From: Gekko japonicus
Taxonomy: Eukaryota
Direction of reading: 5' to 3'
DNA: 64,000 nt
Assembly (NCBI RefSeq): GCF_001447785.1
Contig: NW_015172628.1
Coordinates: 75,135 to 139,134 of the forward strand
Made by a program: the position numbers and the translations under genes. The notes under the pieces are model-generated. The model had not been told where the DNA came from and did no database searches. It worked only from the letters and a program-made list of their open reading frames with translations. Shown piece by piece: positions 2,097-58,788 of this stretch. Each line of letters begins with the position of its first letter. Position 1 is the stretch's first letter.

Positions 2097-5000
2097 TTAT
2101 TTATATTCATCCCAAGTTTTAAACAACTAGTTTGGGCACCCTCCTGGGCGGAGTTTGAATGGAGAAATTTATAAAATTTATAAAACACCAAGTGTCAAAA
2201 CCACTTCCAACTTTTCCTTACTCTTGTCGCTCAGCATTAATGTACAAGCGATAAACACTGGTATCTGTGATACTGAGTCCAAACTGTTTCTTCAAATGAC
2301 ACCTTATTCATGGATTCCCTTTTCAAAGTCCACCTACATTAGGCCAGCTAGACACTCTAAATAAAATGGTTTTCAAGGCAATCAATCAATACTTTATTTA
2401 CAGTCCATGACCAGAATACAAACCAGTAAGGAAAAAATAAAATAAAAATGACCATATAAAAATTAAGGTATGCAAATATAGAAGTATATAAAATTAAATT
2501 AAAACTAATACTAATAAAAATACAGTAGTTTCTAACATTGAAATTCTAATATAGAATACAATCAGCTACTATCTTCCGTTTTTCAAGTTAGCAGCTTCCC
2601 AGTAATGTGTGAGACAAGAGCCCTCCTTTTTTCTTTTGGGCAATATAAAATAACACAAAAACAGCTTCATAAGCTTAACCTTATTTGCAAGCATATTGAA
2701 GGTACTTAATACAAAACTAAAGATTTTTTTTAAAGAAACTTTGATTTCTAGGTTGTTTTCTTTTTGTTCCTCTCTAAATTTTTATACTCTTTCTTTATGC
2801 AGTGTTTCAGTCTTACACAGTCTACAGGGTGTATCCCATCCAGACTTTAACTTTTTACAAGACTACTGCAATGCATTTGACTCTTAGAATACATTTAACA
2901 GCATCTCAGCTCGTTTCTGTGTATGCCGGGGCCCTGACTCACCCTGGGTTCTGTTTGCAGTGCTGCAGGGAGGGCATGGCGGGCCAGCGAGGCAGAAAGG
3001 GCTGTCTGGCAGCAAGCATGGGATGCTGGGGCCTGCCTGATCCAATGCCAGCCCTATCAGCAGGTCTGGGGTGTCCAGGGGGCAGGGTGTGACGGCTGCT
3101 ATTTAGGGCACTGCCCCGCCCCGCTTACCATCTTTCCAGCACCGGACAGCTTGGCCCACCCTCCTGGCTCTTGAGTTAGCTGTAGTTGGTTGGGGTTTGC
3201 ATGTGGTTTTGTTTCACTTGATCTTTTGTCTTGTCACAACTTGGTGGTATCAGCATGGGGGCAGATCCTTTACCAGGAAAGGTGGCTTGAGTGCCCATTT
3301 GCCTGAGAGTAGGGATCCCCTTAAGAGATCTTGGCATGAGGGTCAGGTAGTGCGCCTAGCCTGGGGGCACAGCCGGTAATTACCCTCACACTCAGGTGGC
3401 AGGGAAGACTACCTCAAGGCGTCTGCCTTCGTGTTTTATTTATTTATTTATTCCTTCGATTTATATACCGCTCACCCCCTAAGGGCTCTGAGCGGTTTAC
3501 ATCATACAGTTGATACCATTCCTAACCTAAGGCCACACACATACAATGGGGAAGTGACTAACCTAGCAGGCACCCTATGGTGGAGTCACATGCGGTCACA
3601 GCCATCTTAATACATAACACTCTAGTAGTTTCAAGATGTAGGGTCTTGGCAATAGCTGTTTCAAGCAAAAATTAAGTCAGCCACAACATCACGCAGGATT
3701 AAGTGCATTTCAACATATTGATTTAGACAGACATAAGAACACTAAAGGATGTGTTAATTCATAGCCAAAGTGTTCTACAGTTCTTACCTATCTTCCTCAA
3801 AGGGTAGTTCAGAATGAATGATAACGCCTTGTCCAAGGCTACCCAGAAAATATCATGATAATCTCTTGGCCTCAGCATCATATCCAAAACCAACACACGG
3901 TGTGCTTCCTCACATTATCTCTGGGCATATAGCAACTGTAGATTAGAAACAGACTTCTCTTGCCAAACACCATCAAAATGAATGGCAGTTGTTTGAGTGC
4001 ATGCCATCTCTAGGAACAGGCACAAGTTGTAAGTGTTGGAAATGTATGTGTTTACAAGGTCTGATTCAGTCATTATAGGGTTAACTTGTATTCCTAGTTT
4101 GCTATTGTTTAGACTGACCTGGAAGGGATACCTGGCACTAAGCCAATGGGGCTGTTTAACAGTATGTGTCTTAAGATGAATGTATTATTTAAAAATATTC
4201 TCTTGCGTACAAATGGCCTACCTTAAGTCTCACAGTGAAGGTTCTTGTACTGTGGGGGCACCATGAGATCTCCAGTGGCCAATCATAGGTCCTACTGGGC
4301 AAAAGCCCCACCTGGTCCTGCCCACTTTCAAAAAACACCCGGTGGGCACCAGGAAAGGTATTGGCAGGTGCCATGGCACCCTTCAGATTTGTTGGTTTAC
4401 ATCTGTTGGTTTAGGTCTCTAAACATGTCTCGGGGGCAACATTGTGAGCTCTTTCAGTTACAGGAACTTCATCAAATGACAGAGCGACTAAGCTTTTTCT
4501 AGATTTGAGCCTTCCAGTATTCTTAAGAAAACTGCAAAAAGACAAGTTATTATGTCACCTCTGATATTCCAGTTCCTGTTCTTTAATCCATAATTCTTTT
4601 TCAACCTATTGTAGGATCTATGCCTTCCTCCTACAGGGAAAGTTTTAACTGTATGATCATTTAACTGCCAGTTGTAAAACCAATGTTTCATTAATAGTAT
4701 GATCCCAAGAACACTTGCCTGGAAGTAAGCTCCACTGAATCGACTTAAGTAGGATTCTGGGATTGTTCTCTGAGTTGTTCACAGATGGAATTGAGAAGTG
4801 ATGCTTTCTTGAATGTTGTTAGTTTCCTCCAATTGGCTTGCAAGTGGTATTTGGATTTAAGTGTTTCATGCCAACAGTGAGGACTCAGCCATCATATCTC
4901 TTTTGATTTACTTGCTCCCTAGATCCTCTCTCCAGTCAGGAGTAATGTTTTAAAGTTTTCAGCTGCAGCTGGGAAACCTTTAGCTCTTCCACCACCATTC

Positions 5001-5626
5001 TTGCTCATTTTGGGAAGGATTAAGGTACGGTATACTATACTGTTTAACATTTTAGAAAAAGTAACTGGAAGATGGAGCTCCTCTTCTGTGTATCTGCATC
5101 TGATAGATCCATTGCTCCCCTCATATACCCCCCTGCAAGGATTTTTTTTTGCCTTATGCCAAATCTAATAATTGATCCATCCATCCGGCTTGGTATTAAT
5201 TTCTGTGGGACTTTCCAGATTCAAGGCATATATTCTCCCACTGAGCCTTGTTCTTTGTTCCAGTGTTCAACAGATGAGTCTTTCTTGACCATTCTGTTAC
5301 TTCTGAAATTTTATACATACTAGACAGTATTTACAATGGAATCCTAAACAGAATTACACATCAAAGTCAGTGAGCTCAGAAGGGTGTAGCTTTGTTCAGG
5401 ATTGGTCTATTAATTTACAGTTTAACTGTTACCATTTGCTTCTTATCATCTCCATTCTCATTCCTTTTGCTTCTTGTTTTTTTGTTAGACTGTAAATCAC
5501 TTTGGAACGAGACTTGTTTTATCTTCTATAAACTTCAAGCTTTAGGTCATGTCAGCTGAAATAACTGTTAACAAGCTATTCAACACAAATCTTAAAGTAA
5601 AATTAAAATATCTGACACACACTTAC

Positions 5627-5776
5627 ATTGGCTTATGGCGTTTGTACTAGCTTCCTTGTAAGACTTGTATACATTGATAAGAGTGAAATGATCTCCTGCA
5701 GGATGCAAGAATTTTTGCTGGCAAGTTACTGCAATCTCCTCTGTTCCCTGTGGTGGGTTTACAAAGCAACCAGGAG
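5627..5776 (-). CDS. DHX32: DHX32 coding exon 8
   Basis: APGCFVNPPQGTEEIAVTCQQKFLHPAGDHFTLINVYKSY.... Acceptor acgcaag, donor gtaagt; 150 nt. Confidence 0.94.
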
Positions 5777-7011
5777 CTTGCGTTGAAAAGGATGTGGAAT
5801 GAAAACAAGCCAACAATAAATAAGAGAATATGCTAGATACACAGTGTATACAGTGTGACAATTTTTCATTGGGAAAGCTATGAAACATTCATCTCCATCC
5901 TTTGGTGAAACCTCTAACTCACATTCTAAAATTCAAGGCAGAAATTAATACCTGGCTTATCACATTTTTATCCAGCCCTTCCTTTCAGGGTGGTGTACAT
6001 GATTCTCCATTTTATTGTCATGGCAACCTTAGGCTTGGCTGAGAGGGAGTGACTGGTCCATAATCACTCGTGGCTGATTGCTTTGAATCCTGAATGATAT
6101 TCAACCCTGGTCCTCCCAGTCATGGTCCACTACAACTCCACAGTGACTCTCAAATTATTAATTTACAACTTCTTGCATTCTGGACTGTCATTGTCACACC
6201 TCCACCCTTCCACCAGTATCTTGAATTCAGTGGCCAATAACACTAATAATAAATAGGAATGTTGGCTACTTAATTACCTAATATTGTTTTGAAAATGTTT
6301 GATATTAAGGCTTCCATACGTCCCTATATGACAGCTATGGTCATCAGGCAGCCATTTTTTGGCTGTTTAGCAGAGTAAATGAAGTGCAGCAGAATAATGT
6401 ATCACAGACACGTGTGTGTTTAGCTTCTACGAAAAAGTTTGCTACAAAATTAGGGAAAGGGTTACATGGAAAGAAAACATCAACAGTCTAACTCATCTTT
6501 CTAGTACTACGCCATCTTGTTTCTTTTGTTCCCCCCCTCTTTCTTTGTGTCTGACCCTAAGAAGAAAGGAATGAAAGTTTCCCCCCAAAGCTCCACCCCT
6601 TGTGTAGATGCAGAATAGCATGAACTATCTCCTTATTAAGAATAAAACCTCCCCCTTTTGGTGGCAAGATTTTATGCTACACCTAATTGGCTCTATGCTT
6701 AACTTTCTATCATTAGCTTACAGAAACTTCAGCTTAACTCTTTCATGACTGAAGGGATGACACTTGCAAAACCCAACATACTTGTTGGATATCCCATCAC
6801 TTAGAGTGGCCTGTCTAGCACTGACCAGAGCCCAGGCCTTTTCCATCATGGTTCTAGCTCTGTGGCTCCCTAAATAGTTGTGGAGGACCCCTGCCTAGAG
6901 ATCTTCAGGTGCTGCTGCCAGGCCTGCCTGTTTGCCAGAGCTTGGGGGCGGGGTTTTAAATGGCAGGCATCTTTTAAAGGAGGAAGGAAGAGATATTTGG
7001 GACTTGCTATG

Positions 7012-8950
7012 TTATGTTAGAAGCAGGAAACCAGCCAGGGAGGCAGTGGGGCCCTTGGATGGCCAAGGGGTAAAAGGAGTACGGAAGGATGATAGGGAAA
7101 TGGCTGAGAAGCTAAATGCATTTTTTGCCTCTGTCTTCACTGTGGAAGATGAGAAGTGCTTGCCCACTCCAGAACCGCTGATTTCAGGAGGGGTGTTGAA
7201 AGACCTGAGTCAGATTGAGGTGATGAGAGAGGAGGTCCTAAAACTGATAGACAACTTAAAAACTGATAAATTACCAGGCCCAGATGGCATACATCCGAGA
7301 GTTCTGAAAGAACTCAAATGTGAACTTCTGGATCTCCTTACAAAAATATGTAATCTTTCCTTAAAATCTGCCTCCATTCCTGAGGACTGGAAGGTAGCTA
7401 ATGTCACTCCCATCTTTAAAAAGGGTTCCAGAGGAGATCCGGGAAATTACAGGCCAGTCAGTCTGACGTCGATACCGGGTAAATTGGTGGAAACCATTAT
7501 TAAGGAAAGAATTAGTAGGCACATAGATGAACAAAACCTATTGAGGCAGACTCAGCACGGTTTCTGTAAGGGAAGATCTTGTCTCACTAACCTGTTAATG
7601 TTCTTTGAGGGGGTGAACAAACATGTGGACAAGGGGGATCCAATAGATATTATTTACCTTGACTTCCAGAAAGCTTTTGATAAAGTTCCTCATCAAAGGC
7701 TCCTAAGCAAGCTCAAAAATCATGGGATAAAAGCACAAGTCCTTTTGAGGATCAAGAAATGGCTAATTAATAGGAAACAGAGAGTGAGTATAAACAGGCA
7801 GTGCTCTCAGTGGAGGAGGGTAAGCAGTGGGGTACCGCAGGGATCAGTACTTGGTCCACTGCTTTTTAACTTGTTCATAAATGATTTGGAGATGGGAGTA
7901 AGCAGTGAAGTGGCTAAATTTGCGGATGATACAAAGTTGTTCAAGGTGGTGAAAACCAGTGAGGATTGTGAGGCACTCCAAAGGGATCTGTCAAAGATGG
8001 GCAAGTGGGCGTCAACATGGCAAATGGGGTTCAATGTGGCCAAGTGCAAGGTGATGCACATTGGAGCCAAAAATCCTAAATATAAATACACATTGATGGG
8101 GTCTGAACTGGCAGAGACTGAGCAAGAGAGAGATCTTGGAGTTGTAGTGGATAACTCACTGAAAATGTCGAGACAGTGTGTGACTGCAATAAAGAAGGCC
8201 AATGCTATGCTGGGGATTATTAGGAAGGGTATTGAAAACAGATCAGCCAATATAATAATGCCCCTATATAAATCAATGGTGAGACCTCATTTGGAATACT
8301 GTGTGCAGTTCTGGGCACCACACCTTAAAAAGGATATTATAGCTTTGGAAAAAGTGCAGAAAAGGGCAACTCGAATGATAAAAGGGTTGGAACACTTTCC
8401 CTATGAGGAAAGGTTAAAGCGCTTAGGGCTCTTTAGCTTGGAGAAAAGACGACTGAGGGGTGACATGATCGAGGTTTATAAGATTATGCATGGGAAAGAG
8501 CAGGTAAAGAAAGAGGTACTTTTCTCCCTTTCTCACAATACAAGAACTCGTGGGCACTCCATGAAACTGCAGAGCGGTCGGGTTAGAACGGATAAAAGGA
8601 AGTACTTCTTCACCCAAAGAGTGATTAACACATGGAATTCACTGCCACAGGAAGTGGTGGGTGCTACAAGCATGGACGGCTTCAAAAGGGAATTAGATAA
8701 GCATATGGAGCAGAGGTCCATCAGTGGCTATTAGCCACAAGGTATAGCTAGGGGCTCTGGGGCAAGTGATGCTCTGTCTTCTTGGTGCTTGGGGGGGGGG
8801 TCAACAGTGGGAGGGCTTCTAATGTCCTGGCCCCACTGCTGGACCTCCTGATGGCACTGGTATTTCTGGCCACTGTGTGACACAGAGTGTTGGACTGGAT
8901 GGGCCTTTGGCCTGATCCAACATTGGCGTCTCTTATGTTCTTATGTTCTT
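7012..8950 (+). mobile_element. 5'-truncated CR1 LINE with uninterrupted ORF2 RT region
   Basis: About 570 open codons with PGPDGIHP, FKKGSRGDPGNYRPVSLTS, YLDFQKAFDKVPH, GVPQGSVLGP and FADD; 3'UTR ends in (CTTATGTT)n. Confidence 0.95.
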
Positions 8951-8991
8951 AAATGTAGGAGCAGGACCAGGGTACTTTAATCCATCAGGGA

Positions 8992-9229
8992 AGAGGTCCA
9001 TCAGTGGCTATTAGTCACAAGGTATAGATAGGGGCTCTGGGGCAAGTGATGTTCTGTCTTCTTGGTGCTTGGTGGGGTCAACAGTGGGAGGGCTTCTAAT
9101 GTCCTGGCCCCAGTAGTGGACCTTCTGATGGCACTGGTATTTCTGGCCACTGTGTGATACAGAGTGTTGGACTGGATGGGCCTTTGGCCTGATCCAACAT
9201 TGGCATCTCTTATGTTCTTATGTTATGTT
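8992..9229 (+). mobile_element. Second copy of the CR1 3' end/3'UTR
   Basis: Near-identical to 8712-8950 and separated from it by a ~41-nt spacer. Confidence 0.9.
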
Positions 9230-10187
9230 CTTTTATTTTAGTTGGGGATGTTTTAACTATTATTGTAAACTTCCTTGAACCAAGAGGAAAGATGGGATAT
9301 AAATGTTTTAATAAATAAATAAGGCTAATGCAAAGAGGACTTACATTTGCTAATATGGATATTTATACACTCTTCTTTTTTTGGTGACAATTACAAGTCA
9401 ATTTGAGGTGATAATCTTAAATAAGCAAAGCACCCCTTCTATAAGTACTTTTACACATCTGTCTACCCACTTGACCAACCATAGGGAATGAACATATGTG
9501 ATGTCTGTAGAAGAGTGCCATAAACCTGCCACTGTTTCACACCTTCCTGTCTGCTTTAAATATTCTGTTTTAAAATACATTGTTGTTCTTTCCAACTAGT
9601 GGTAGAATTTATTCAGGTACATATACAGGATTACAAGATAGTGACTTTTTAAAAAGTAGTGGTAAAAATGGAAGACATATTGTACACCTGTTATAAAAAC
9701 AGATTCTGAAAAATTATTTGATATGTACAAATACAGACAAAAATGTATAGGTGGTGTTAGGGGTTAAACTGATATCTAACTTGTACCACTACAGGCCAAA
9801 ACTACATGTTACAGGGAGATGAATGTGTAACTTGTAATGTGTAACTGAGGAAAAATAGCATGTTAAGATATTCTATTTATAAGCAGCATTTCCCTGCTCT
9901 CCCTCCGCTTCACTGGCTGCCAATTGTGGGAGGTGTGGTGAAATGCTAACACAATATCATCACACCATTTTCAGATATACATTCTTGTACATAGAAAACT
10001 AGGTGTCAGAGGGTGCGTTCAAACAGCTCTTTAGATCTGCGCGAGGCACGGGTGCCTCATGGATTTAAATGTAATGTCTAGACATCAACATCTGGGAAAC
10101 GTCTGTCTTCCGTGAGCATCCAGTTTTGCCGCGCTTAGGAGCCATACTAAAAAGATACTACTTTAAATCTAGAGTTTTCAGTTCCGA

Positions 10188-10503
10188 CCTTCGCGCCCCG
10201 CTGGGAAGAAAAGAAGGGCCCAGGGCTTCCCTCCCGGCCGCTGCACGCGGCCGGGAGAGGGATCGATGGGGGGGGGGGGGGAGATTTCTCCCCAGCGGAG
10301 CGCCTTCGCGCCCCGCTGGGAAGAAAAGAAGGGCCCAGGGCTTCCCTCCCGGCCGCTGCACGCGGCCGGGAGAGGGATCGATGGGGGGGGGGGGTGAGAT
10401 TTCTCCCCAGCGGAGCGCCTTCGCGCCCCGCTGGGAAGAAAAGAAGGGCCCAGGGCTTCCCTCCCGGCCGCTGCATGCGGCCGGGAGAGGGATCGATGGG
10501 GAT
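10188..10503. repeat. CpG-rich ~115-bp tandem repeat (~2.7 units) in a GC-rich insertion (~10010-10720)
   Basis: ccttcgcgccccgctgggaagaaaagaagggcccagggcttccctcccggccgctgca... repeats at ~10188, 10303 and 10418. Confidence 0.9.
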
Positions 10504-11262
10504 GGGGGGGTGGGGGAGGAAGGCAAGGCCGGGGAAGGCAAGGCCCGGCTACTTACCCTCCTGCTTCGTCCTCATTCTCCAACGGAATGAGGATCGAAGC
10601 AGAGGGCGGGGTGAAGAAGGGGGCGGGGCTTCACCACATGACCGCCCCGCCCCCTAGAGGTTCTCTTCCGGAGCGCCGTACCGGAGTGCTCCCCCCCGAC
10701 TAGAGCCAATTGATGTGTTCCTACAATCCTGAAAATCGATATCTACTGAAAAGGGATTTAATTCTTTCAATACATTTAGGAGTACACACCTACATATTCA
10801 CACATCTTGGAAAATGTGACAACATACTGCCAAACTATTAACCAATCATTACATCATTAAATTAAGCAGCATAATACACGGGTTTTATTGTGTTTACAGA
10901 GCAAATCTGTAAAGGTCTGCATAGTTTTATTCTCATTAAAAATCATATGGGAACAGATAACCCATAGCAAATTTTTGAGCAATGCAGAAAAGAACTTGAA
11001 TCACTTTTCAATCTACACTTCATTAATTATGATAGTTAGTAGTCCAAGACTTAAGAATTTTACAGTGCAATCCTAAATGCTCCCTTTTAAACCCATTTAA
11101 AATATTTAGGATTGCACTGCTAATCAGTATGTTAATCAACTATGCATTCTGGGGTGTTAATTAATAAGCACCCATTTTAACTAATGTGGCAGCAAGTCAA
11201 AGGCATGCTTATTGATTCTTTTCACACCATTTTGGTTGATTTGTATTACTGAAATAATTAAT

Positions 11263-11394
11263 GGAGGGAGGGAGGGAGGGAGGGAGGGAGGGANNNNNNN
11301 NNNNNNNNNNNNNNNNNNNAGGGAAGGAGGGAAGGAAGGAAGGAAGGAAGGAAGGAAGGAAGGAAGGAAGGAAGGAAGGAAGGAAGGAAGGAAG
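11263..11394. repeat. (GGAG)n/(GGAA)n microsatellite containing an N gap
   Basis: Directly visible. Confidence 0.95.
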
Positions 11395-11615
11395 ACCAAA
11401 AATCTGACAGCTTTTGTTTATACTTCTTTCAGTACCTCTGCAAAGGTTTTGGTAATATCTTATCTTGTTTAAATTTAATCTGTTAGTTTATTAAAAGGTA
11501 GATGATTAATCAACTAATCATTCTTTAATTGGCTGATAGCTTATTTGTAATTAGACTGGACTTCAACAACAACCTCTATGGCCTAGGTAGGGGGCAGAAA
11601 TACTTCAGAAAATAC

Positions 11616-11807
11616 CTGTTACCATAGCAGCAATAGTTAGCATTTCCTCTACGCAATCAAATTCACATGAAGCTAAAATAGACTTGGACATCTGTGGATC
11701 CACAGGAAACTCAGACATTATTATTCCAAATTCGGAAAGGTTTCCATCATTGTCCAAGGCAGCCAAATAATCAAGATCTTCCAAAGCTTGCATGAGACTT
11801 TCAGGAT
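11616..11807 (-). CDS. DHX32: DHX32 coding exon 7 (HA2 region)
   Basis: [64 protein letters not shown]. Acceptor atcccag, donor gtattt; 192 nt. Confidence 0.96.
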
Positions 11808-12154
11808 CTGGGATGGGCAGAAATTTTAAAAATCAAGCACATTATTAGATAAATTAGCTTGTATCATAGTCCTATGCAAATAGAATGCAGTCTGTTATCT
11901 AGGTACTCAAAATGGAAGGTACTCAAGGGAAGTATACAAGACAAGAAAGACTATAATTATTTCATCCATTGAACCAGATAGTGCTAAATATTAAAGGACC
12001 AGTTGATAAATATTTTGCCATATTTATGAGTAAAACATGATAGATGACAAATGACGTTTAGAACAAACTGATGAAAGAAACATATTCGAAAATTCTACAG
12101 GTCTTCAAGTATATTTTTATTTATATTTAAAATCTACCACCTTCCCACATAGAC

Positions 12155-12365
12155 ATCCAGAATGGTATAGCAATTAGAGTAATGGACTAGGATCTGGAAG
12201 ACTCTACTTTGAATCCCTACTATGTATGAATGCTTGCTGGGTGACCTTGGGCCAATCACACATTCTTAGCCTAACCTACCTTTCTAATTGGTTATGAGGA
12301 TAAAATGGAGGAAGAGCACAGCTGTTCCAGATCATTTTTTGTAGTAAAGGTGAGGTATAAATTTT
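12155..12365 (+). mobile_element. Degraded tRNA-derived SINE
   Basis: Box A-like tggtatagcaattag and box B-like tttgaatccc, followed by gggtgaccttgggccaatcac...agcctaacctacc core. Confidence 0.55.
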
Positions 12366-12489
12366 GTGTCCATTTTTGGAAAAAAGAGACATGTAAGAGT
12401 AGTAACATTAAAAACATATGTTTTTGACACAGATTTTAGGTTTTGTCTAAATTAGGTTCAGACAAATCCCAAGAGAGAGGTGAGGCATT

Positions 12490-13060
12490 GAGGTCTACTC
12501 CATTGTCCAGCCTGGGACCAACTGGTGGCATACCAGATCAGGTTCAAAGTTCTGGTGTTAACCTTCAAGACCCTTAATGGTCTGGAACCCACTTTTCTTC
12601 CGGACTGCCTCTCCTGGTATACCTCACAAAGAGCATTACGCTCAGCAGATAAGAACCTATTGGTGGTCCCCAGCCCGAGACACATCTGGCTGTCCTCAAC
12701 CAGGGCCAGGATGTTTTTCGCCCTGGCCCCAACCTGGTGGAACCCTCTGCCATATAACTTCTGGGTCCTGCAGGATTTAATGCAATTCCTGCAGGGCTAT
12801 AATGCAGAGATGTTCCACCAGGCGTTTGATTGAGGACAGTGATGGTTTCCATCTGTCTGGTGCTCCTATCTCTTGCCTCCCCCTGCAGTGGCATAATTGA
12901 CAGTCTTAGTGTCATCTTATCAGGCCGTTTATTGTATTTTTATTGTATTGTTATTGTTTTAATTCTTAAATTGATATATATTTTTATTGATGTACACTGC
13001 TTCAAGTCCTGTTTTTTTACAGAGGAGAGCAGTTTAGAAATCAAGTTTAATAAATAATAA
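12490..13060 (+). mobile_element. L2-type LINE 3' fragment
   Basis: YQIRFKVLVLTFKTLNGLEP...RMFFALAPTWWNPLP; AT-rich tail ending in aataaataataaa. Confidence 0.8.
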
Positions 13061-13432
13061 ACTGCCGTTGGGTTCATCCCCACCAACTCTGTCCCTGCAG
13101 CAGCATCCCACCAGATCATAATGGACCAGTTAGAAAACGAGAGTTAATGCTTGTTTTCCTCTTTCATTTATTTCCCTTTTTCCTTTTGTCTTGTTTGTAG
13201 TATATTGTAGGTGTTATTTTGAATTGTAAACTGCCTTCAATGCAATGGCAGAAAGGAATTATATTATCTATATTAAAGAAATCCTTAGGTAAACCTTGCT
13301 GTGTAGTCGTAGGCTCACCTATTAAATTCTGTTGCACTAGCAGAACAAAATGTTACACTGAGACAGTGCATTTACACTACTATATCATTACCATTGTGTT
13401 GGAGGTACATAATGCCATCAGAGCTGCTATTT

Positions 13433-14865
13433 TGGGAGGCGGGGTCTACGGCACAATGATGGCGGACACCTTTCCCAGCTCTCTGGGAAGGCGCACCGCA
13501 CAGCAGCGGGGGGGGGAGAGGTGCCGCTGGATCGGCACCCCCATGGGAGTTCGGGGGAAACTCCCAGGCCATAGGGCTTTTGAGGGTGAGCCTCTTTTCC
13601 TGCTAACTGCAGGGAGATGGAGGCTTCCCTCCACCCTGATGGTCCCTCTCGCTGACTGCGTCCTCTTAGCGAGGCCACAAGCTGTGTCGATCCAGTCAAG
13701 TGCAGGAGATCTAGCAGAGGAGCGATTAAGAGTGTGGTCAAGATAAAGACCAACAATGAACTGTGAGTTAAGGAGTGAACTGTGAGTTAAAATGAGCGAT
13801 TTGTCTTCAGAACAGAAACACACACCCCCAAGACAAAACTTTCTGAGTGATTGGAACGTGCTGAGAGAGGGATNNNNNNNNNNNNNNNNNNNAATTAGCT
13901 TGTATCATAGTCCTATGCAAATAGAATGCAGTCTGTTATCTAGGTACTCAAAATGGAAGGTACTCAAGGGATATAAGTATACAAGACAAGAAAGACTAAT
14001 AATTATTTCATCCACTGAACCAGATGGCGAAAACAACTCCGAGAAGAAGGGAAGTAGACGTCATTGCAATTGTAGCGGAAGCCACCAAGCTGATTCTGGA
14101 GCAACTTGTTGGTATTAACCAGCAGCTTGCCAAGATAAATCAACAATTTGTGTCCCGGCAGCTCCAGTTGGCAACGATAGCAGAAAAAATGGAACTGAGG
14201 GCTTTCAAAGCGAATGAGATGGACACTAAATTAAACAGCGATCTCATTGAGAAAAGGAGAAAAAGCACAAGAGAAACAGGAAAGATTTACAAGGACTTAA
14301 CTCCTTCCTTGCAAGTGTTCTTAGAAACTGTCATCTTAAATCCTGCTGAGAAAAAAGAGCTTGAGTTTCCCTTCACAATCAAGAAACCTTTGAGATGCCA
14401 CTGAGCCCCAAGGGCGAGACCAGAGAGGAAGAGGCTTAAGACTGGCAGTTTTATCCTTTTGGATGGAGGAAAACTGGGCTGCAGAATTTGGAGTGAACGT
14501 CTAAGAAGCTATTAAGATTTTAGAGAGTCTTAGTATAGAGTATAGAAGGACTCTGGAAATTGCCTTTATGAAGCGAGTTGGAGGAGATGCAGCCAAAGAG
14601 GTCCATGCCCTGCTAGCTGGTTCTGGCAGAGTGTGATTTAGTTAATACCCCTAGTTACTATTTTCTTCCCCTGTTTTCCATTGCAACAGACAAGGGAAAG
14701 ATAAGTATTAAACCGTAAACCTACCAACCTCTTAAGTAAATGGGACTATTTTATGTACTTCTGTAACTCTAAAGGAACTTGATTGTGTGAGAGTGTGATT
14801 CCGTTTTGTGTGTATGTGATTTTTGATATTATTCAGTAAAAGACAAATTGTTTTGGAAAAACACC
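13433..14865 (+). mobile_element. Non-autonomous retroposon, copy A (HAL1-like, short coiled-coil ORF)
   Basis: Homologous to 38429-40159 from the same 5' terminus (ggaggYggggtctacggc...gatggc). ORF 14024-14404; no RT; 3' boundary approximate. Confidence 0.7.
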
Positions 14866-14964
14866 AGTCTAGTCTCTTTCACTGGGACTTACCTGGGGTG
14901 GATTCGGACCTCCGTAAACTTTGGCAAGAACTCACATTAAATTTAGTTGCCATCTGCTGTTCAT

Positions 14965-15353
14965 AAAGCAAGTTTGGCTAACAACATTGAAGTATCAGCA
15001 CTTGACCTGACGGAATCGGTGACAAAATTTGCAAAGGAAAAGGCACACAAAATGAGATTTTGATATGCCTGAAATGGAAGCATACAAGAGCCTTAATTTT
15101 TGACATCACAGTTCACAGGATTATTCAAAATGATAGGTGAGTTGTGTGCTAAAACTGTTTTCTGTTTGAGAAAGAAAACCAAAGGCTGTCATTTTACTTA
15201 TTCTCACTTTTTTAAACAAAATAGCAATGTCAAGTTTTGTGCTTTTAATTTTCCCTAGAATTAATCTGTTTTTGAAAATTGGTTAGTGGGAGGGCACGCG
15301 CACGCAAGTAGTTAGCCTTGCCTAGGGCGTCAAAAAGCCTGGCACCGGCCCTG
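14965..15353 (+). mobile_element. hAT transposon 3' remnant (transposase C-terminus plus right TIR)
   Basis: Translates LANNIEVSALDLTESVTKFAKEKAHKMRF*, resembling the FAxxKARK hAT dimerisation-domain tail; ends ...ggcaccggccctg. Confidence 0.55.
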
Positions 15354-17941
15354 CCTGGGGCCACTTCAGGTTGGGAAACTGGCATAGAGGGCAAGCCTGA
15401 AATCCCCTCTCCCCACATGCCATGGTCCCTGTCTCAGTTGCTATAGAAGAACACCTCCCACTTCTGGAATCCTGCTGCTGCTTGGTGGAGCAGTGAGAGC
15501 AATGATAAGGGGGGGAAAGCAGCAGTGTGGTGATACCACAGTGTCACTTCCAGTTATATAAAGCCAGAGGTGACATCACAATGTTGCCATGATGCTATAG
15601 GGATTTACCAAATCTCCATTACTTTTGCTTCAAGTCATCCCTGCCCCCCCCCCGAACTCCCTGGTGTTGCCAGCAAATGGCCTGCAACTCTATAAAGCAT
15701 TGAAGAATAAAATTACATAATAAAGCTATCAATAAAACTATAAGAATTCATTACAACCAGCAGCAGTACCTTTCAACAGATAAAAGCAGCAGAAGTAAAA
15801 ATTAAAAAGACAATCTCGTTTAGCAGCCCAATATAATATCAAGATTTAAATATACACATAATTTAGCAGCAGGTGAAATAAAAGTACACAAGATGTAAAA
15901 CAAAAGCAGGGAAGCAAAACTAAGACCAGTCATAAAACCCAGACATTACATGACTGGATTATATGTTGGATATGAGCTTTGGCCAAATATTATGCATTTT
16001 GCCAAAATGACTTCTACAGCAAAGATTCCAGGTCTTTATCCAAAGACCTGGGTTATATTATTGGAATTCTGATCCCTTCCTGCACATCGCAAAAAAGTCT
16101 GAACATTTATTAGCCAGCCTGCGAGGTTTAATGTGACAAAAGATGAGTCCTTGAGAAAGTCAAAGCATCGAAGAAGAAAACTGGTTGGACATTTGAAGAA
16201 AAAAAAGTTTGAGTTTTATCACTGAGCCATGAAATGAAAAGTAACAGCTGATGAATGGGAGAAACGTAGAGTCAGTGACAGAAAATAGGGATGCAAGATT
16301 TAAAGGAGGGGCATGACTGGCTACTGAGTCTTAGAGGTAATTACCAGAGAATCATGACATGCTAATTTCTATAAATCAATAAAGCAGTTTGCATTGTGAG
16401 CTGAATATATGGCTATTGTCCTTACAAGCATTTGGCTCAGCAGCCAGTTCTAGCCCCTGAGGAGTCTTTCTGCTTTGCATTTTTATTTCTCTGAGCTGGT
16501 TTGCTCTGAGACGGAGGAAGAAGGGATGACTCCAGGCTTTTGCTTCAGTATTATAATAAAAAAGTATTAGATTTTTTATTATATTAGAAAGGACAAGTTA
16601 ATAAATGCAGATTATACAGGTGAAGGAACAGTAATAAAATAAAAGAAAACCTTGAATAGGATTTTCAGATATTAGCCTGCATTTGCAGCCTATAAAACAG
16701 TCATTGTAAAAATAGCACAGGTTCATTTAAGATTTTTTATGGTATGGTTTTAGATTTAAATAAAACACAACATAAATAAAGGAAACAAAAGCAACTTCCA
16801 TGTTTTAAATCAGAAAGCCTTTTCTTTAAAGGGACAACAATACATAGTGCTTTATAAAAGAGGTTTTAACAACAGCCAGTGTCATTTTTATTACGTCTGG
16901 CCTGCCAAGGTCAGAGTTACAGAGAGCCAAGCAGCACATTTCATTCAGGGCTTTGTGATTCTACCACAGCAGTGTGGGGGGGGGGGGGGGAAACTACATA
17001 AATTTATCCTAGATTGAGAAACAAAAAGATGGTCCCATTTTTGCCTGGCTAGTTATTTAATATTTTGTTACTGTTTTAAAAAGCAATGCTCCATTTTTCC
17101 TACAGAAGTTAAAAAAGTATGAGGATCTGTCCACATAGATTTTTAAAAAAAACACCTTTAACAATAATTATATGAAAGTCTTCCAGGCAGGCCCATAGCC
17201 AGAAAATTGGGGGAGGGGGATGAGTACAGTGGTGGTGAGCATATCATTATTTATTTACTTTGTTATGACTGAGCTACGATGTAGTACAAAATCTCTAAAG
17301 GGGTCATTCTACAAAGAAGTTTAAACGATAATCCATTTTGTTTGAAACCAAATATTCCCTTCATTTATTTACACATGATGAACAGAGGCTTGTAAATGCA
17401 TGAAGATCTCCACCCCCATATTGGCCCACTTCCACTTTCCTGGGTTGCAACGTGCCAAATGGGAATCCCCTCCACCAATGTATCAGCATAAAAATGTCTG
17501 TTTCTTCCTCTGAGCATGAAATGAAGCTTGCTAACAGACATCACAGAAGAAGGTGCGTTTTCTTGGATTGATGGCCCCTTTGATTCACAACACCATTTTC
17601 CATTGAACTCCCCTCCGCCACCTTCCCCAGGCTTCATCCCGCAAATCTCCAGGAATTTCCCAACATGGATTTGGAACCCTAGTGAGTAAGTGCACATGTT
17701 TCTTTCGCAGCTACAGCTTGCCAAGCATACAGGGGAAGGGTGGCTTTTTTGCTTCACGTAGATGGGAAGAGAAGCTGGGGAGGCTCCCCTCTACAGATTC
17801 AGAGATTGACTTCTTCCCCCTTGCTGAGCCCAGTTAAAAGAAAAAGCAAAATTGTTTTTATTATTTTGATGTATATCCCACACTTCCCACAAGCCGGCTC
17901 AGGGTGGGCTCAGCTAGCACCAATTCATTATCATCATTTTA

Positions 17942-33355: not shown

Positions 33356-34251
33356 GGAACATGAGAACTAGTGATAAAGAAGAGTGTCTCTCTAAATATA
33401 TGTAGAATACATTTACCACACAACGGAACAACCAAATCACACATTGTAGGCCGTGATCACACAGGCAGTTTAGCCCGACACAGGCACTCCGCCCCTCCGG
33501 ATCAAATGGGCGCAGTCAGACGCCCCTTCGGATCAAATGGGAACAGTCAGACAGACACATCTGTCAGGCGTTCCCCAGCCATACTTATCCCATCACAGGA
33601 TGACTTGGAGCCGGGTTAAAAAGGCACCACATCACAAGTGGTGTTTTCAGTTCCCCACACAGTCATTGCGCATGGCCGGATGTCTGAATGTGGGGGAGCG
33701 TACACAGAATGGTTTTGGCAGTCTGAATTGTGAAAATATTTTTGCAGCATGCTCCGTGGCTGAGGTGCTGCAATAATGTGGAGGCTTTACCATGGGATTC
33801 TCTGAGGGTAACTTGCAGCAGGGTGTGCTGTATGGCTGATATGCCCCGCAACACTTTCAACTGGTTCAACTAGAGGCGGCACCATATCACGCCAAGCCAC
33901 CAGTGTGACCACAGTCATAGACAGCATTAAGAAACAGAACTTCTAGGCTAGAATGAAATTACAGGTAGGCATATGACCAGGCATATCTCACTTAAAAATG
34001 TACCGCAGCAGTCTTAATATAACAAGAAATTGTTAAATACCTTGTACAGCAGGATCATTTCATCTGAGGCTACAGCAGACTGCTACTGGAAACTCTTGGA
34101 AGCAGCTTCCTACTTTTCATTCAGTGTGACATGAATACCCACCTCACTTCATGAATACCAGGTGTGAGTTTTGATGGGCTACAAAAATCGCTTATCCCCA
34201 CATGTAGGAACATGCATACAGAAATTTTCTACATGTTATTAAATTACTTAC

Positions 34252-34624
34252 TTGTTCACAGGCTAGAAAGATCACAACATCACCTCTCCTTTTGGAATTA
34301 TGAATTTCAAAAAGCAGCCTTAAAGCAGACAAGAAATAATCTTTTTGAATGCCAGAGGTATATGCAACTTCTGTCTGGTTCTGGCTTTGTACTCTTATGA
34401 GAGGTACAGGGCCATAATATGCCTGTAGTTTGCTGGACAACTGAAGAGATGTGATGATAATTAGTTTCAGCTCTGGCCTCAGTATCAAGACATCTTTAAG
34501 GAGTCCAAGCAGTACATCTGTGGGGACAGTCCTTTCAAGCACACAATCTATGATGATGATTCCATAACTGCTTAGAAGGGGACTGGACATCATTTCTCTT
34601 TGAAGCATGTCATCTGTACTGAAT
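34252..34624 (-). CDS. DHX32: DHX32 coding exon 3
   Basis: FSTDDMLQREMMSSPLLSSYGIIIIDCVLER...DVVIFLACEQ. Acceptor ttacag, donor gtaagt; 373 nt, restores phase 0. Confidence 0.95.
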
Positions 34625-37550: not shown

Positions 37551-38428
37551 CAGATCTAAGCCATTTATGTGCAGCCAAGTACTTTTATCAGACTGGAACT
37601 CACAAAAGGGTACTGGCAGGTTCTCTTGAGGGAACAAGACTGGATAAAAACAGCCTTTGCCACCCTACAAGGTCCTTATCAGTCCAGGACAACGCCATTC
37701 AGTCTCAACAGGGTTGCTGCAATCTTTCAACAACTGGTGGACCAAGTGCTAAACCTCTATAGAACCTTTCCCACAGTTTATATCAATGCCATCCTCATCT
37801 ATAGTAGCAGATGACTGGAGCATCTAGCTCATCTGAAACCGATGCTAGCAGCATTATGGAAGGATTCTCAGATGCCTAATACATGAGGCATTTGGTGGGT
37901 AAAGGCCTTGAAACACATGCCTTGATCTAAGACCCAAAAGCAAGTTTTCTTGGCCTTATCAGCTATTATAAACGATTTCCCCCCTCATTTTGCTTCCATT
38001 ACCAGCCCGTGACAGATTGGCTCCAGAAGAACATGCCAGATCCTGTGCAATGGACAGCATGTTGCGACAGAGCCTACCAAACACTGCAGGGCACCTTGAC
38101 TAGCTTCCAATACTGCATAACCCAGACTTCACACAACCATTCATGCTGCATATAGATTCCTCAAACACTGGCTGGGTCCTCTCACAGAAACAAGACAGGC
38201 AGGAAAACCCACTTGTGTACCTGAGCCAGAAGCTGTAGCCCTGCCAGCAAGCTTGGTCAGCAACTGAAAAGAGGCCCTAGCCATCAAATAGGCTATTGGG
38301 GTCCTGTAATACTTTCTCTCTGGGAACCACTTTACAGTTATTACTGATCATGCCCCCCTCCAATGGTTTTACTCAGCCAAGGATCACAATGCATATCTTT
38401 TATGATGGTAACTTTCTCTGCTTCCTTT

Positions 38429-40159
38429 TTTTTAAGACCCCCGGAGGGGATTTTTTATTTTTATAATACTACATAAACTACAAAGAAAAGAAGGGAAGGG
38501 GAACTACGACTAAGGAGAAAGAAAAGTAACCCACACTAAACTAAAAACCCAAGAGTAGGAGATCATTACCCTGTTAGACTGCAGTTAGTAATGAAAAAAA
38601 AATAAACAGTATACTTTGTGAGATCCTGTCTTTCTAAGCTTATGTGTTAGTTTATTACTTGTTATGAGAAGATTTCCAGAGCATCTCCTCCAGCTCTCTT
38701 CGTAAGGGCAATTTTCAGAGTCCTTCCGCCTTTACATCTATGCTAATTCTCTCTAAAGTCTTGATGGCTTCTTAGACGTTCACTCGAAATTCTGCAACCC
38801 TCCTCCATCTCCAAAGGGATAACACCGCCAATCTTAAGCCTCTTCCTTCTTGGTCTCANNNNNNNNNNNNNNNNNNNNNNNNNNNNNNNNNNNNNNNNNN
38901 NNNNNNNNNNNNNNNNNNNNNNNNNNNNNNNNNNNNNNNNNNNNNNNNNNNNNNNNNNNNNNNNNNNNNNNNNNNNNNNNNNNNNNNNNNNNNNNNNNNN
39001 NNNNNNNNNNNNNNNNNNNNNNNNNNNNNNNNNNNNNNNNNNNNNNNNNNNNNNNNNNNNNNNNNNNNNNNNNNNNNNNNNNNNNNNNNNNNNNNNNNNN
39101 NNNNNNNNNNNNNNNNNNNNGAATTTAAGACGACACTTTCTAAAGTCTTAACCACTTGAGGAGTTAAGTCCTTGTAAATCTTTTCTGTTTCTCTCCTGCG
39201 AGATCTCTGTTAGTTTTAGTGTCCATATCTTTTGCTTTGACAGCCCTCTGTTCCATCTTTTCTGCTATTGTTGCCAACTGCAGCTGCCGGGACACGAGTT
39301 GTTGATTTATCTTGGCAAACTGATGGTTAATACCAACAAGTTGCTCAAGAATCGGCTTGGTGGCTTCTGCTATGAGTTCTATAACTTTCACTTCCCTTCT
39401 TCTTGGAGTTGTTTTCGCTGACTTTTTTGGAGTGTCCGCCATTTTTACACTTTAATTCCAATATAAAATCATTTTCTCCCCGGCTCTGAAAATCGCTTAC
39501 ATGCTGTTTAGTCGCTTAAATACTCATGGATATCTCCCACAGCTTTCCGCTTCAAAATATCTGTTTACAATTGTCTCTTTCTCTCTCTCCCTCCTCTGCT
39601 TATCTAAATGCGTCAGAGAGGTCTCCCTCTCTCAGCACGATTCCAGTCACTCAAGAGGTTTCGGGGGGGATTTTAGCTTCAAAGTGTCCGTTTACAATTG
39701 TCTCTCTCTCTCTCTCCTCCCTCCTCTGCTTATGCAAATGCGTCTGAGAGGTGTCCCTCTCAGCAAAATTCCAATCGCTCAAAAGATTTTGGAGGGGGGG
39801 GATTTACACTTCCGTTTACGGTTCACTCATTTTAACTCACAGTTCATTGTTTCTTAACCACGCTCGTAATCGCTCCTTCGCCAGATCTCCTGCGCTTGAC
39901 TGGGTCGGCACATCTTGTGCCTCGCTAAGAGGACGCAGACAGCGGAGAGGACCGTCAGGGCGGAGGGCAGCCTCAATTCCCCTGCATATAGCAGGAAAAG
40001 AGGCTCACCCTCAAAAGCCCTATGGCCTAGGGGGCCTCCCTGACCCCCCGTGGAGGCGCCGATCCAGCGGCACCCCTCCCCTCCGCTGCTGTGCGGAGCG
40101 CCCTCCCTGAGCCTCGGGAAAGGTGTCTGCCATCGTTGCGCCGTAGACCCCACCTCCAC
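38429..40159 (-). mobile_element. Non-autonomous retroposon, copy B, with 17-bp TSD and poly(A)
   Basis: TSD ctttctctgcttccttt at 38412-38428 and 40160-40176; A-tail preceded by AATAAA on minus; ORF MADTPKKSAKTTPRRREV... begins at 39442. Confidence 0.85.
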
Positions 40160-40964
40160 CTTTCTCTGCTTCCTTTCATCTTCGCTGTCAAACAATGGAA
40201 GGGAAGTGCCCATGGCAGTGCTAATTTCCTGTCCCAGATATACAATGAGGATGCTGGCATCAACTTGGTGGGGTAATGGTGTCCAGAGCCAGATGGGGGC
40301 TCTGAAGCTGGTCCCATGACTATTGCAAAGGTGGTAGGCCAGTATGGTGGGGCCAGAGCCCCTTGAGGGGGATGAGAATAGGAGATAGGGCCCATCAGTG
40401 ACTCCAGTGAAAAACTGGTGTTTGGTGCAGTTGCAGGGCCGGGCTTCCTCAGGCTGGTAGAAACATGTGGCAAGCAGGCAAGGCTGTGTCTGTTACTAGA
40501 AAGCCATGCCTCCAAAGCTCAACAGTGAATTAATGGGGTCAGGCCAAGAAGGAGGCCAAAGCAGTCAGCCACAAGGGAGCACAGACCTCTCCTAAGTCTT
40601 TTCCAGGAATGGGAGGAACCACTTGTGATTGGCTGGTTTCCCATAAAGGTAAGGGGGAAGGACTTGCAGGGACTGAGAAGAGCTATTTAAGCTCCTCCAG
40701 CCCAGAGCCAAGGAAAACACAGTTGGAGCTACTCATCTCCCACACAGATAGCTCAGAGAGATGGGCAGGAAAGTGAAAAGAGAGTCCCATTGGGAGCAGA
40801 AAGAATTCAGGGTGAAGATTCAACACCCTCCCCTCCCAGTCTGAAGCCTCTGCAGGAGTGCAGTATGAACTCAGTATGCCCTCTGGTGAACTCATCACCA
40901 AGGAGGCAGAGATGACCTTTGCTCAACAACCCACCAGCCATGGATTGTTGCACTGCCTTCCATT

Positions 40965-57145: not shown

Positions 57146-58509
57146 ACACCCTCAGGGATGCAGAAAAATATAGATTTTAAAACCCTAACATTTTAACAAA
57201 AAACATCAAGATCTTGTGATGCTACATCAGGTGGTGGTGGTGGTGGGGAGAACAGGAAGGAATGCCACAGGTGCCAGCAAGGCAGGCGGCCAGGCACACA
57301 GACGGGCAGGCACTGCTGGCCCTACTGCTGGCATGCCAGGTGAGAGGGTGAGCAATGGGAACCAGTGCTGCAGGCAGTAGCAGGAGCAGCCACTGCTGCC
57401 CCCACCTTTGCATGAGCCAGGCAGGCAGAGGGAGAAAAGGTGCAAGTGAGAGAGTGGGACCTGCTGCTGCCTCTCCGCCACTGCTGTGTGAGCCAGACAG
57501 GCAGAGGCTGTGGCACTGAAGGCAGGTGGGCTGGCCAGCAAGCGGCCAACTAAGCCAATGAAAGGGGGGGGGGAAGGATGGGATTCTTCCTCCTTGCAAA
57601 CCTTGCAGGTGCCCCACTTGTGTTGTAACAATAAGCAATGATGTATTCTGTGGGAAAATACAAAGTCGGGCACTCGCTCCATGTACTAATATCTGGGCTT
57701 TTTGTCTTTTGACTTCTCCAAAGCTCCATGGCAAACTACTTTTAAAATCCAACAGAATTCTGAATGCAATTTTTGATGTAGCATCATGTTCAAAGACAAA
57801 AGTCAAATCCCTACTGGTTGCGCACAAGTCCTTAAGCATGCTGTAAGCCACTCTTTAGTTTTTAACTACCTTGATCCAAAAGCATTGTGAATGTGACATG
57901 GAATTAAACACCAGCACAACTAATAACCTCTTTGCCTGGAGTTAATATTGAACTGGAGATGTTAGGTACTCAGTACTCTCATCATCAAATGGTTTTGATC
58001 AGATCTCCATAGGCACATAAATCCAATCAAGAAAAATTTATACCAGTAGCAGAAAAAAATTAAAGCATCAAAATCCTAACAGTTTAGCTGAAAACTTCAT
58101 ACCACATATTGTTCATATACTACAATTGGGCAGCAATACCAAATTCCAAATATTTTAATCCTTGAACTTTCCAAACTGAAGTGTTTGAGCACTGAGTTTC
58201 ACAAGCCTTCACAAAAACCAAGGGATTACTACTAGGTAACTACACTATATGTGTGTAATTATATGCTCTATGTAATAAGATATTATAGTCCAAAATGAAC
58301 ATTATGAACATTATTTAAACTAGTACTTCCAAAATTGAACCTGACAGAAAGACCCCTGAATTTGTAAAAGTATATAAGCAAATGTTAGTAATTAAATTAA
58401 AACATTATTGTCATTTTGGTCATCCCTCTTAAAACTATAACGGTACAAATGCAACAATCCAACATTTAATTCTGGTTGATAACATATAATTCTGGTTGAT
58501 AACACCCAC

Positions 58510-58788
58510 CTGGGACCTCTTGCCTGTTCTGGCATCTCCTGAAACAATCACAATCTGATGATGATGCAGACTTTCCATGAAAGCATATTTCATTTGCCAG
58601 ATAGGAAGTTCCTCTCTTTCTTTGAGAAGCTTGTAATAACGGGAAGAGAATGGCAATCTGTCAAAAGGATTAATCTCTAAATCTTCTGCACATTTCCCTA
58701 TCCTTGCCTCCTCCATCTCCTCCACATCAGTAGAATCAAATAATTCTGAAGAGCACGGCTTCTCAGAGGAAAAGGATAAACAGTCCAT
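58510..58788 (-). CDS. DHX32: DHX32 coding exon 1 (exon incl. 5'UTR runs 58883-58510)
   Basis: Translates MDCLSFSSEK...EDLEINPFDRLPFSSRYYKLLKEREELPIW...IVIVSGDARTGKRSQ, matching the recalled DHX32 N-terminus. Acceptor ttttttgttcctag before 58883, donor CAG|gtgggt; 279 nt, phase 0. Confidence 0.93.

Follow-up and report, generated by a model that had tools for sequence, protein, structure and literature searches.

A 64,000-nucleotide stretch of Gekko japonicus DNA (assembly GCF_001447785.1, contig NW_015172628.1, forward-strand positions 75,135 to 139,134; hereafter the window) contains an insert with L1-type ends and the remains of one short ORF. This raises the question of how an element without RT is copied, and of what its protein does. 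ORF1-only retroposons are already known, and the reason for which they keep a protein is unsettled. We think it rather probable that the insert, copy A, is a decayed member of a multicopy poly(A) retroposon of about 1.5 kb that lacks RT, is likely copied by L1 ORF2p and is likely helped by its own protein. Comparisons with published elements draw on those parts of the cited papers that were available.

Copy A is a decayed full-length insert with the hallmarks of TPRT

Copy A is flanked by a perfect 17-bp direct repeat, CTTTCTCTGCTTCCTTT, which constitutes its TSD, and begins at 40159 with the letters GTGGAGGTGGGGTCTACGG (Table 1). The AATAAA signal lies 20 nt ahead of the 8-A tail, and the T-tract of the target site is on the side from which priming by the poly(A) would start. 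The insert thus combines the TSD, poly(A) and T-rich target that are hallmarks of TPRT, and contains no ORF for an RT or an endonuclease. On each of these points the initial annotation, which had described an insert of about 1.7 kb with a 17-bp TSD, AATAAA and poly(A) and with neither enzyme, is borne out.

The same holds for the 5'UTR, recorded there as CpG-rich and about 700 nt long; its 717 nt have 52% GC and 34 CpG, 22 of which fall in the first 320 nt, and it is likely to be an internal Pol II promoter. Copy A has two tandem monomers in this region, of which other family members omit one, their contig joints skipping 126-129 nt. Compared by eye and at the level of motifs, the 5' end resembles L1 5' ends published in the available part of PMC5381506. 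At either end of copy A, hairpins were no stronger than in shuffled sequences (z -1.1 to +0.2).

Table 1. Coordinates of copy A, copy B and neighboring features in the window.
Feature	Position	Strand	Remarks
Copy A	38429-40159	-	Decayed full-length retroposon insert
TSD, 5' copy	40160-40176	-	Exact match to 38412-38428
5'UTR of copy A	39443-40159	-	717 nt, G-rich start, ATGGC motif
Two tandem ~130-nt monomers in copy A 5'UTR	39549-39798	-	TRF period 130, 84% matches
Family ORF, N-terminal part, copy A	39121-39442	-	Basic head and heptad-rich helix
Assembly gap, copy A	38859-39120	.	262 N, inside ORF
Family ORF, C-terminal part, copy A	38772-38858	-	RPRRKRLK..., stop 38772; further small frameshift
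3'UTR of copy A	38434-38771	-	About 340 nt, A/T-rich, AATAAA 38459-38454; ungapped, no ORF2
Poly(A) tail of copy A	38426-38433	-	8 A; 3 A overlap TSD
TSD, 3' copy	38412-38428	-	Exact match to 40160-40176
Copy B, 5' part	13434-13873	+	Start motif as in A; 83% identity with A across 352 columns; stops at 19-N gap
Foreign segment in copy B	13893-14025	+	95% identical to window 11852-11979; supplies apparent ATG of B
Copy B, ORF and 3'UTR part	14027-14590	+	Family codon 9 to stop 14504; 86 nt of 3'UTR
Decayed LTR-retrotransposon pol relic hosting copy A	37800-38411 and 40177-40300	+	Weak RT_RNaseH match
Two DHX15/Prp43-like DEAH helicase exons	58435-58788, 34192-34608	-	

Copy B is a damaged relative

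A second 5'-complete copy had been proposed elsewhere in the window. Copy B does begin with the same start motif, and is 79-83% identical to copy A across three blocks; however, it is damaged, and a foreign segment replaces the start of its ORF. The source of this segment, 128 nt at 11852-11979, recurs 2 kb away within copy B, adjoining an assembly gap and with small indels, as either a templated insertion or a misassembly; the ATG of copy B is located at the junction with this segment.

The remainder of the ORF carries a TGA at 14402 and a 2-nt loss near 14462. The TGA had been ascribed to CpG decay, but it aligns to Trp in all three of the Gekko kuhli proteins that span it (see below), and the change is therefore TGG to TGA rather than decay of a CpG. 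The apparent continuation of the frame to about 14515 is an artefact of the 2-nt loss, the true shared stop being at 14504. Nor could the end of the copy be placed at 14865, as previously suggested: homology to copy A stops at 14590, no TSD was found within 14500-16500 nor, with 14-16-mers, anywhere in the window, and no poly(A) was found. We take copy B to belong to a diverged subfamily and to have been either damaged or misassembled.

The family ORF spans the assembly gap of copy A

The ORF of copy A itself ends at 39164 after 92 aa and is frameshifted near 39199, because about 19 nt that are present in copy B and in a contig of run X3 are missing there. Downstream, the 262-N gap corresponds to 71 nt in two other family members. 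One X3 contig (contig 11; 306 nt, depth 86), whose locus of origin may differ from copy A, crosses the region with 71 letters between the matching parts, and in copy B the spacing is 74 nt minus 3 known bases, which again gives 71 nt. By way of the X3 contig, the ATG frame of copy A leads into the KRLK frame. Since the gap interrupts the ORF itself, measures 71 nt in two members and is followed by a 3'UTR that runs ungapped to the poly(A), the family is without ORF2. An ORF2 hidden in the gap of copy A was considered and rejected on the same grounds, in agreement with the initial judgement that the gap, if correctly sized, is too small for an RT.

Length arithmetic gives a family ORF of about 167 codons, or about 504 nt. 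Copies A and B share its stop (38772 and 14504, respectively), each with a small loss shortly before it, and two G. kuhli proteins, P0006 and P0007, terminate at the matching position. The single ORF of about 180 aa with a KRLK stretch that had been read in copy A was thus correct as quoted for its N-terminal part, whereas copy A stops at 92 aa and its KRLK stretch lies past the gap. In the same way, the proposal that the element keeps its own coiled-coil protein agrees with a family ORF of about 167 codons, but not with the two copies in the window, both of which are broken.

Predicted structure of the protein: a basic helical oligomer

The relatives of the ORF product are four unnamed predicted proteins of G. 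kuhli, two of which, P0006 and P0007, extend without interruption over 167 aa, starting at the matching Met and finishing at the matching end; the openness of these frames is partly ascertained, because gene callers select open frames. Protein searches matched 2 of 45 candidates, 4 of 4,472, and 5 of 1.84 billion representatives, these five being the four G. kuhli proteins and P0009. The latter is a repetitive diatom protein with 29% identity over about 49 aa (E 1e-7), and was dropped. Metagenome and viral scans found nothing, and a weak search found no longer relative among 8,000 candidates.

For all seven proteins submitted to Pfam at E ≤ 10, in a search run without a gecko ORF1p control, the matches were sub-cutoff and none was to an L1 ORF1p family; a PDB sequence search likewise returned no L1 ORF1p, and only designed or generic coiled coils with E ≥ 0.13. 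Neither an RRM nor a CTD was detected in the family protein, and a full RRM and CTD cannot fit well in about 167 aa. The ESM Atlas gave a single match at 0.79, which is at chance level, and otherwise none that was usable.

The protein is basic and has a modest heptad pattern, with 0-11 of 200 shuffles equally good in five proteins. AlphaFold2, run twice with six-sequence alignments, predicts one helix of about 90 residues (block pLDDT about 50-80). The suggested structural check therefore yielded a single long helix, but the C-terminal third is of low confidence (mean pLDDT 53 and 50 in the two runs), and Foldseek found no match at E ≤ 0.001 with this low-confidence model as the query. The prediction adopted here is a basic helical oligomer. 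Among L1s, the N-terminal region with the coiled coil is described as too variable for alignment (PMC5381506, available part).

The element is present at many sites

A total of 4,066 contigs of the DNA run X1 map, at 80% likeness, to the region that holds copy A. Their summed depth, which is no copy number, is 23-107 in the flanks of copy A; within the element it is 37,384-172,910 across the first ~320 nt, 4,833-14,515 in the mid 5'UTR, 20,798-57,017 in the ORF bins, and 235,376-457,174 across the final ~320 nt. Depth far above that of the flanks along the entire length indicates that the element occurs as a unit at many sites. Consistent with this, 44 X1 contigs depart at 38426 into mixed flanks (agreement 0.39), as expected of a 3' end shared by many sites. 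The depth suggests a family of hundreds to thousands of copies, many of them 5'-truncated. These copies form diverged variants with differing UTRs. At 39354, 8 nt are deleted in a high-depth contig of X3.

These data bear on the possibility of a burst of processed retrocopies from a small host gene. The retrocopies of a constrained gene would likewise show one ORF, poly(A), a TSD and a synonymous excess of the kind reported below for copies A and B. We nevertheless regard such a burst as very improbable, given the very large size of the family, its L1-like 5' end, its diverged variants with differing UTRs, and the recovery, outside G. kuhli, of only one repeat-like diatom protein (E 1e-7) among 1.84 billion representatives.

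RNA reads on the element numbered 1,742 of 16,753,912 in X21 and 104 of 16,260,634 in X22, two runs of one study; they lie in both directions about equally, so that strand and promoter use are not readable from them. Many reads match the element just over its final ~30 nt (140 X21 reads, at 38459) or ~150 nt (69 X21 reads, at 38576) and then diverge; these could represent other subfamilies or the tail of an autonomous partner. Separately, one DNA contig links the 5'UTR to the 3'UTR across 38625-39884, skipping 1,258 nt, and is possibly a still shorter, ORF-less derivative.

Constraint is found in the N-terminal part of the ORF

The test for selection used a single pair, copy A against copy B. 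In the longest ungapped block, which comprises 71 N-terminal codons, 18 of the 29 differences are at third positions (Fisher P 0.003), with dN 0.106, dS 0.327 and dN/dS 0.32. After removal of CpG sites, 12 of 22 differences are at third positions (P 0.026), and when neutral evolution was simulated with transition and CpG bias, no more than 0-2 of 300 runs attained 18 third-position changes. The 31 alignable C-terminal codons, in three blocks, have no synonymous and seven non-synonymous changes. When all 102 codons are pooled, dN/dS rises to 0.50; three neutral models attained this value in 11, 65 and 103 of their 400 runs, the two larger counts coming from the transition-biased models; the third-position excess was matched by 4-11 of 300 neutral runs. 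Divergence in the UTRs is 0.14-0.15. The dN/dS comparison that had been proposed thus finds constraint in the N-terminal 71 codons, but none in the 31 C-terminal codons, and the sequences of this one pair support purifying selection limited to the helical N-terminal block.

Could this selection have been inherited? In an internally deleted L1 derivative the ORF would be a relic, its constraint dating from autonomous ancestors, and the element would travel as passive poly(A) RNA. The broken state of both A and B, the confinement of selection to the N-terminal 71 codons, and the greater depth of the first ~320 nt than of the mid 5'UTR, as if the head were shared, all fit such an origin. However, copies A and B and two G. 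kuhli proteins have one short ORF in common, and it ends alike in all of them, which implies that the short form is older than their divergence; moreover, the synonymous excess falls between two short-form copies, and the weak search described above found no longer relative. We consider a passive deletion derivative unlikely, and prefer a retroposon whose own protein assists it.

Comparison with HAL1, L1 and other elements

HAL1 is an L1 derivative that encodes ORF1p alone and has several origins in mammals (PMC5753468, available part); it is also given as ORF1-only and mammalian in the part available of PMC13756887. As far as these sources describe HAL1, the gecko element is like it in being non-autonomous, with a single ORF, no ORF2 and L1-type ends, and it has amplified at many sites with the poly(A) and TSD seen in copy A. 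It differs in that its ORF of about 167 aa has no detectable RRM, CTD or ORF1p homology, while HAL1 is mammalian. The full L1 ORF1p that characterizes HAL1, with coiled coil, RRM and CTD, is replaced here by an ORF of about 504 nt for which the low-confidence models contain a helix only, and for this reason we do not file the element as HAL1. By analogy, it likely works as HAL1 does, as an ORF1-only element mobilised in trans.

The available part of PMC5381506 gives ORF1 as 762-1,158 nt across 55 vertebrate L1 families, and reports an early ATGGCG at L1 5' ends and T-rich 3'UTRs in lizard L1s. Viewed by eye over the first 400 nt of each, 7 of 9 published clade-1 consensus starts show a GCTC motif after the early ATGGCG, a trait that the gecko element has in common with them. 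Like lizard clade 1 L1 (Anolis L1_AC), as far as its published description was available, the gecko element has a long CpG-rich 5'UTR, a T-rich 3'UTR, AATAAA and poly(A). Clade 1 L1s are described there as 6.2-6.7 kb long, with an ORF1 of 1,026-1,101 nt, an ORF2 and no tandem duplication in the 5'UTR, whereas the gecko element is about 1.5 kb long, with an ORF of about 504 nt and a pair of 130-nt monomers; its start also differs from the clade 1 GACTTCCGGTG consensus. The ORF2 of about 3.5-3.9 kb that marks an autonomous vertebrate L1 is absent.

These comparisons also address the identity of the helper. An element of the same architecture could depend on another LINE that makes poly(A) and TSDs, from Tx1 or another clade, and derive its ORF from the ORF1 of that LINE. 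The absence of an L1 ORF1p match in the Pfam and PDB sequence searches would agree with this, as would the many reads that share the last ~30 or ~150 nt only, which could mark the tail of such a partner. Nonetheless, the G-rich start, ATGGC, CpG-rich 5'UTR, T-rich 3'UTR and AATAAA with poly(A) agree with the description of vertebrate L1 in the available part of PMC5381506, and we judge a non-L1 helper to be quite unlikely, keeping L1 as the preferred partner.

HeT-A and Ag-Sponge resemble the gecko element in having a single protein and no RT, and in their reliance on an autonomous partner (PMC5786205, available part). They differ in belonging to the Jockey and CR1 clades of insects, and no sequence link to them was found. 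A tRNA-derived SINE would have a small-RNA head and no ORF; the gecko element has an ORF, no tRNA gene was found in it, and Rfam gave one sub-threshold match (E 0.38). Among the best-ranked matches of a literature search whose coverage stopped short of Repbase Reports and most subscription papers, we found no HAL1-like family from a gecko or other squamate.

A proposed cycle and its significance

We propose that the CpG-rich, L1-like 5'UTR would drive transcription as an internal Pol II promoter, and that the ~167-aa protein, the frame of which is open in two G. kuhli predictions, would come from intact master copies. This protein may bind its own RNA through its basic ends, while the heptad helix may join ORF1p of the partner and so draw the RNA into L1 particles. 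A benefit in cis of the protein to its own RNA is our proposed cause of the selection on the ORF. L1 ORF2p, the presumed enzyme, would then make a nick in T-rich DNA and use the poly(A) for priming, with the 17-bp TSD as the result. Inserted copies would afterwards decay, as is observed in A and B.

The proteins of HAL1, HeT-A and Ag-Sponge have been proposed to multimerise with partner proteins (PMC5786205, available part). Fragments of human ORF1p that contain the N-terminus together with the coiled coil bind to ORF1p of full length and inhibit L1 in trans (PMC5605252, available part), which makes an interaction with ORF1p plausible, yet one that could be inhibitory. A bolder version would make the element a quarter-L1, its ORF1p trimmed to a basic head and coiled coil, with RRM and CTD lost, and selected as an adaptor that inserts itself in ORF1p oligomers, steering the L1 machinery towards the RNA of the element and poisoning L1 particles; this is possible, but we hold it to be doubtful.

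If the preferred reading of an RT-less retroposon helped by its own protein is correct, it would extend the HAL1 lifestyle to squamates. The unusually short ORF (about 504 nt, far below the ORF1 of any of the 55 vertebrate L1 families), with selection on the helical part alone, would isolate the oligomerisation function. With this family one could test directly if proteins of the kind aid their own RNA, sabotage L1, or do both. Several unnamed gecko gene predictions can also be flagged as retroposon copies.

Genomic surroundings of copy A

The left flank of copy A matches RT_RNaseH weakly (E 0.0026; 18.4 bits against a cut-off of 24.8), and the right flank has no domain match. Both flanks read LSLLPF over the TSD, as would be expected if the element had inserted into an old LTR-retrotransposon pol relic, presumably Ty3/Gypsy. 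Copy A lies between the DHX15/Prp43-like exons and on the same strand, and is thus likely intronic.

Two further RT ORFs were observed in the window. An uninterrupted ORF of 544 aa at 7100-8734 on the plus strand (RVT_1 E 3e-35) belongs to a young LINE fragment that we take to be CR1-like. On the minus strand, an uninterrupted ORF of 373 aa at 55357-56478 matches RVT_1 (E 1e-23) and ALKBH8_N (E 2e-16), a layout characteristic of Rex1/Babar LINEs, which are known mainly from fish; a near-intact copy of this type in a gecko could be a lead to horizontal transfer.
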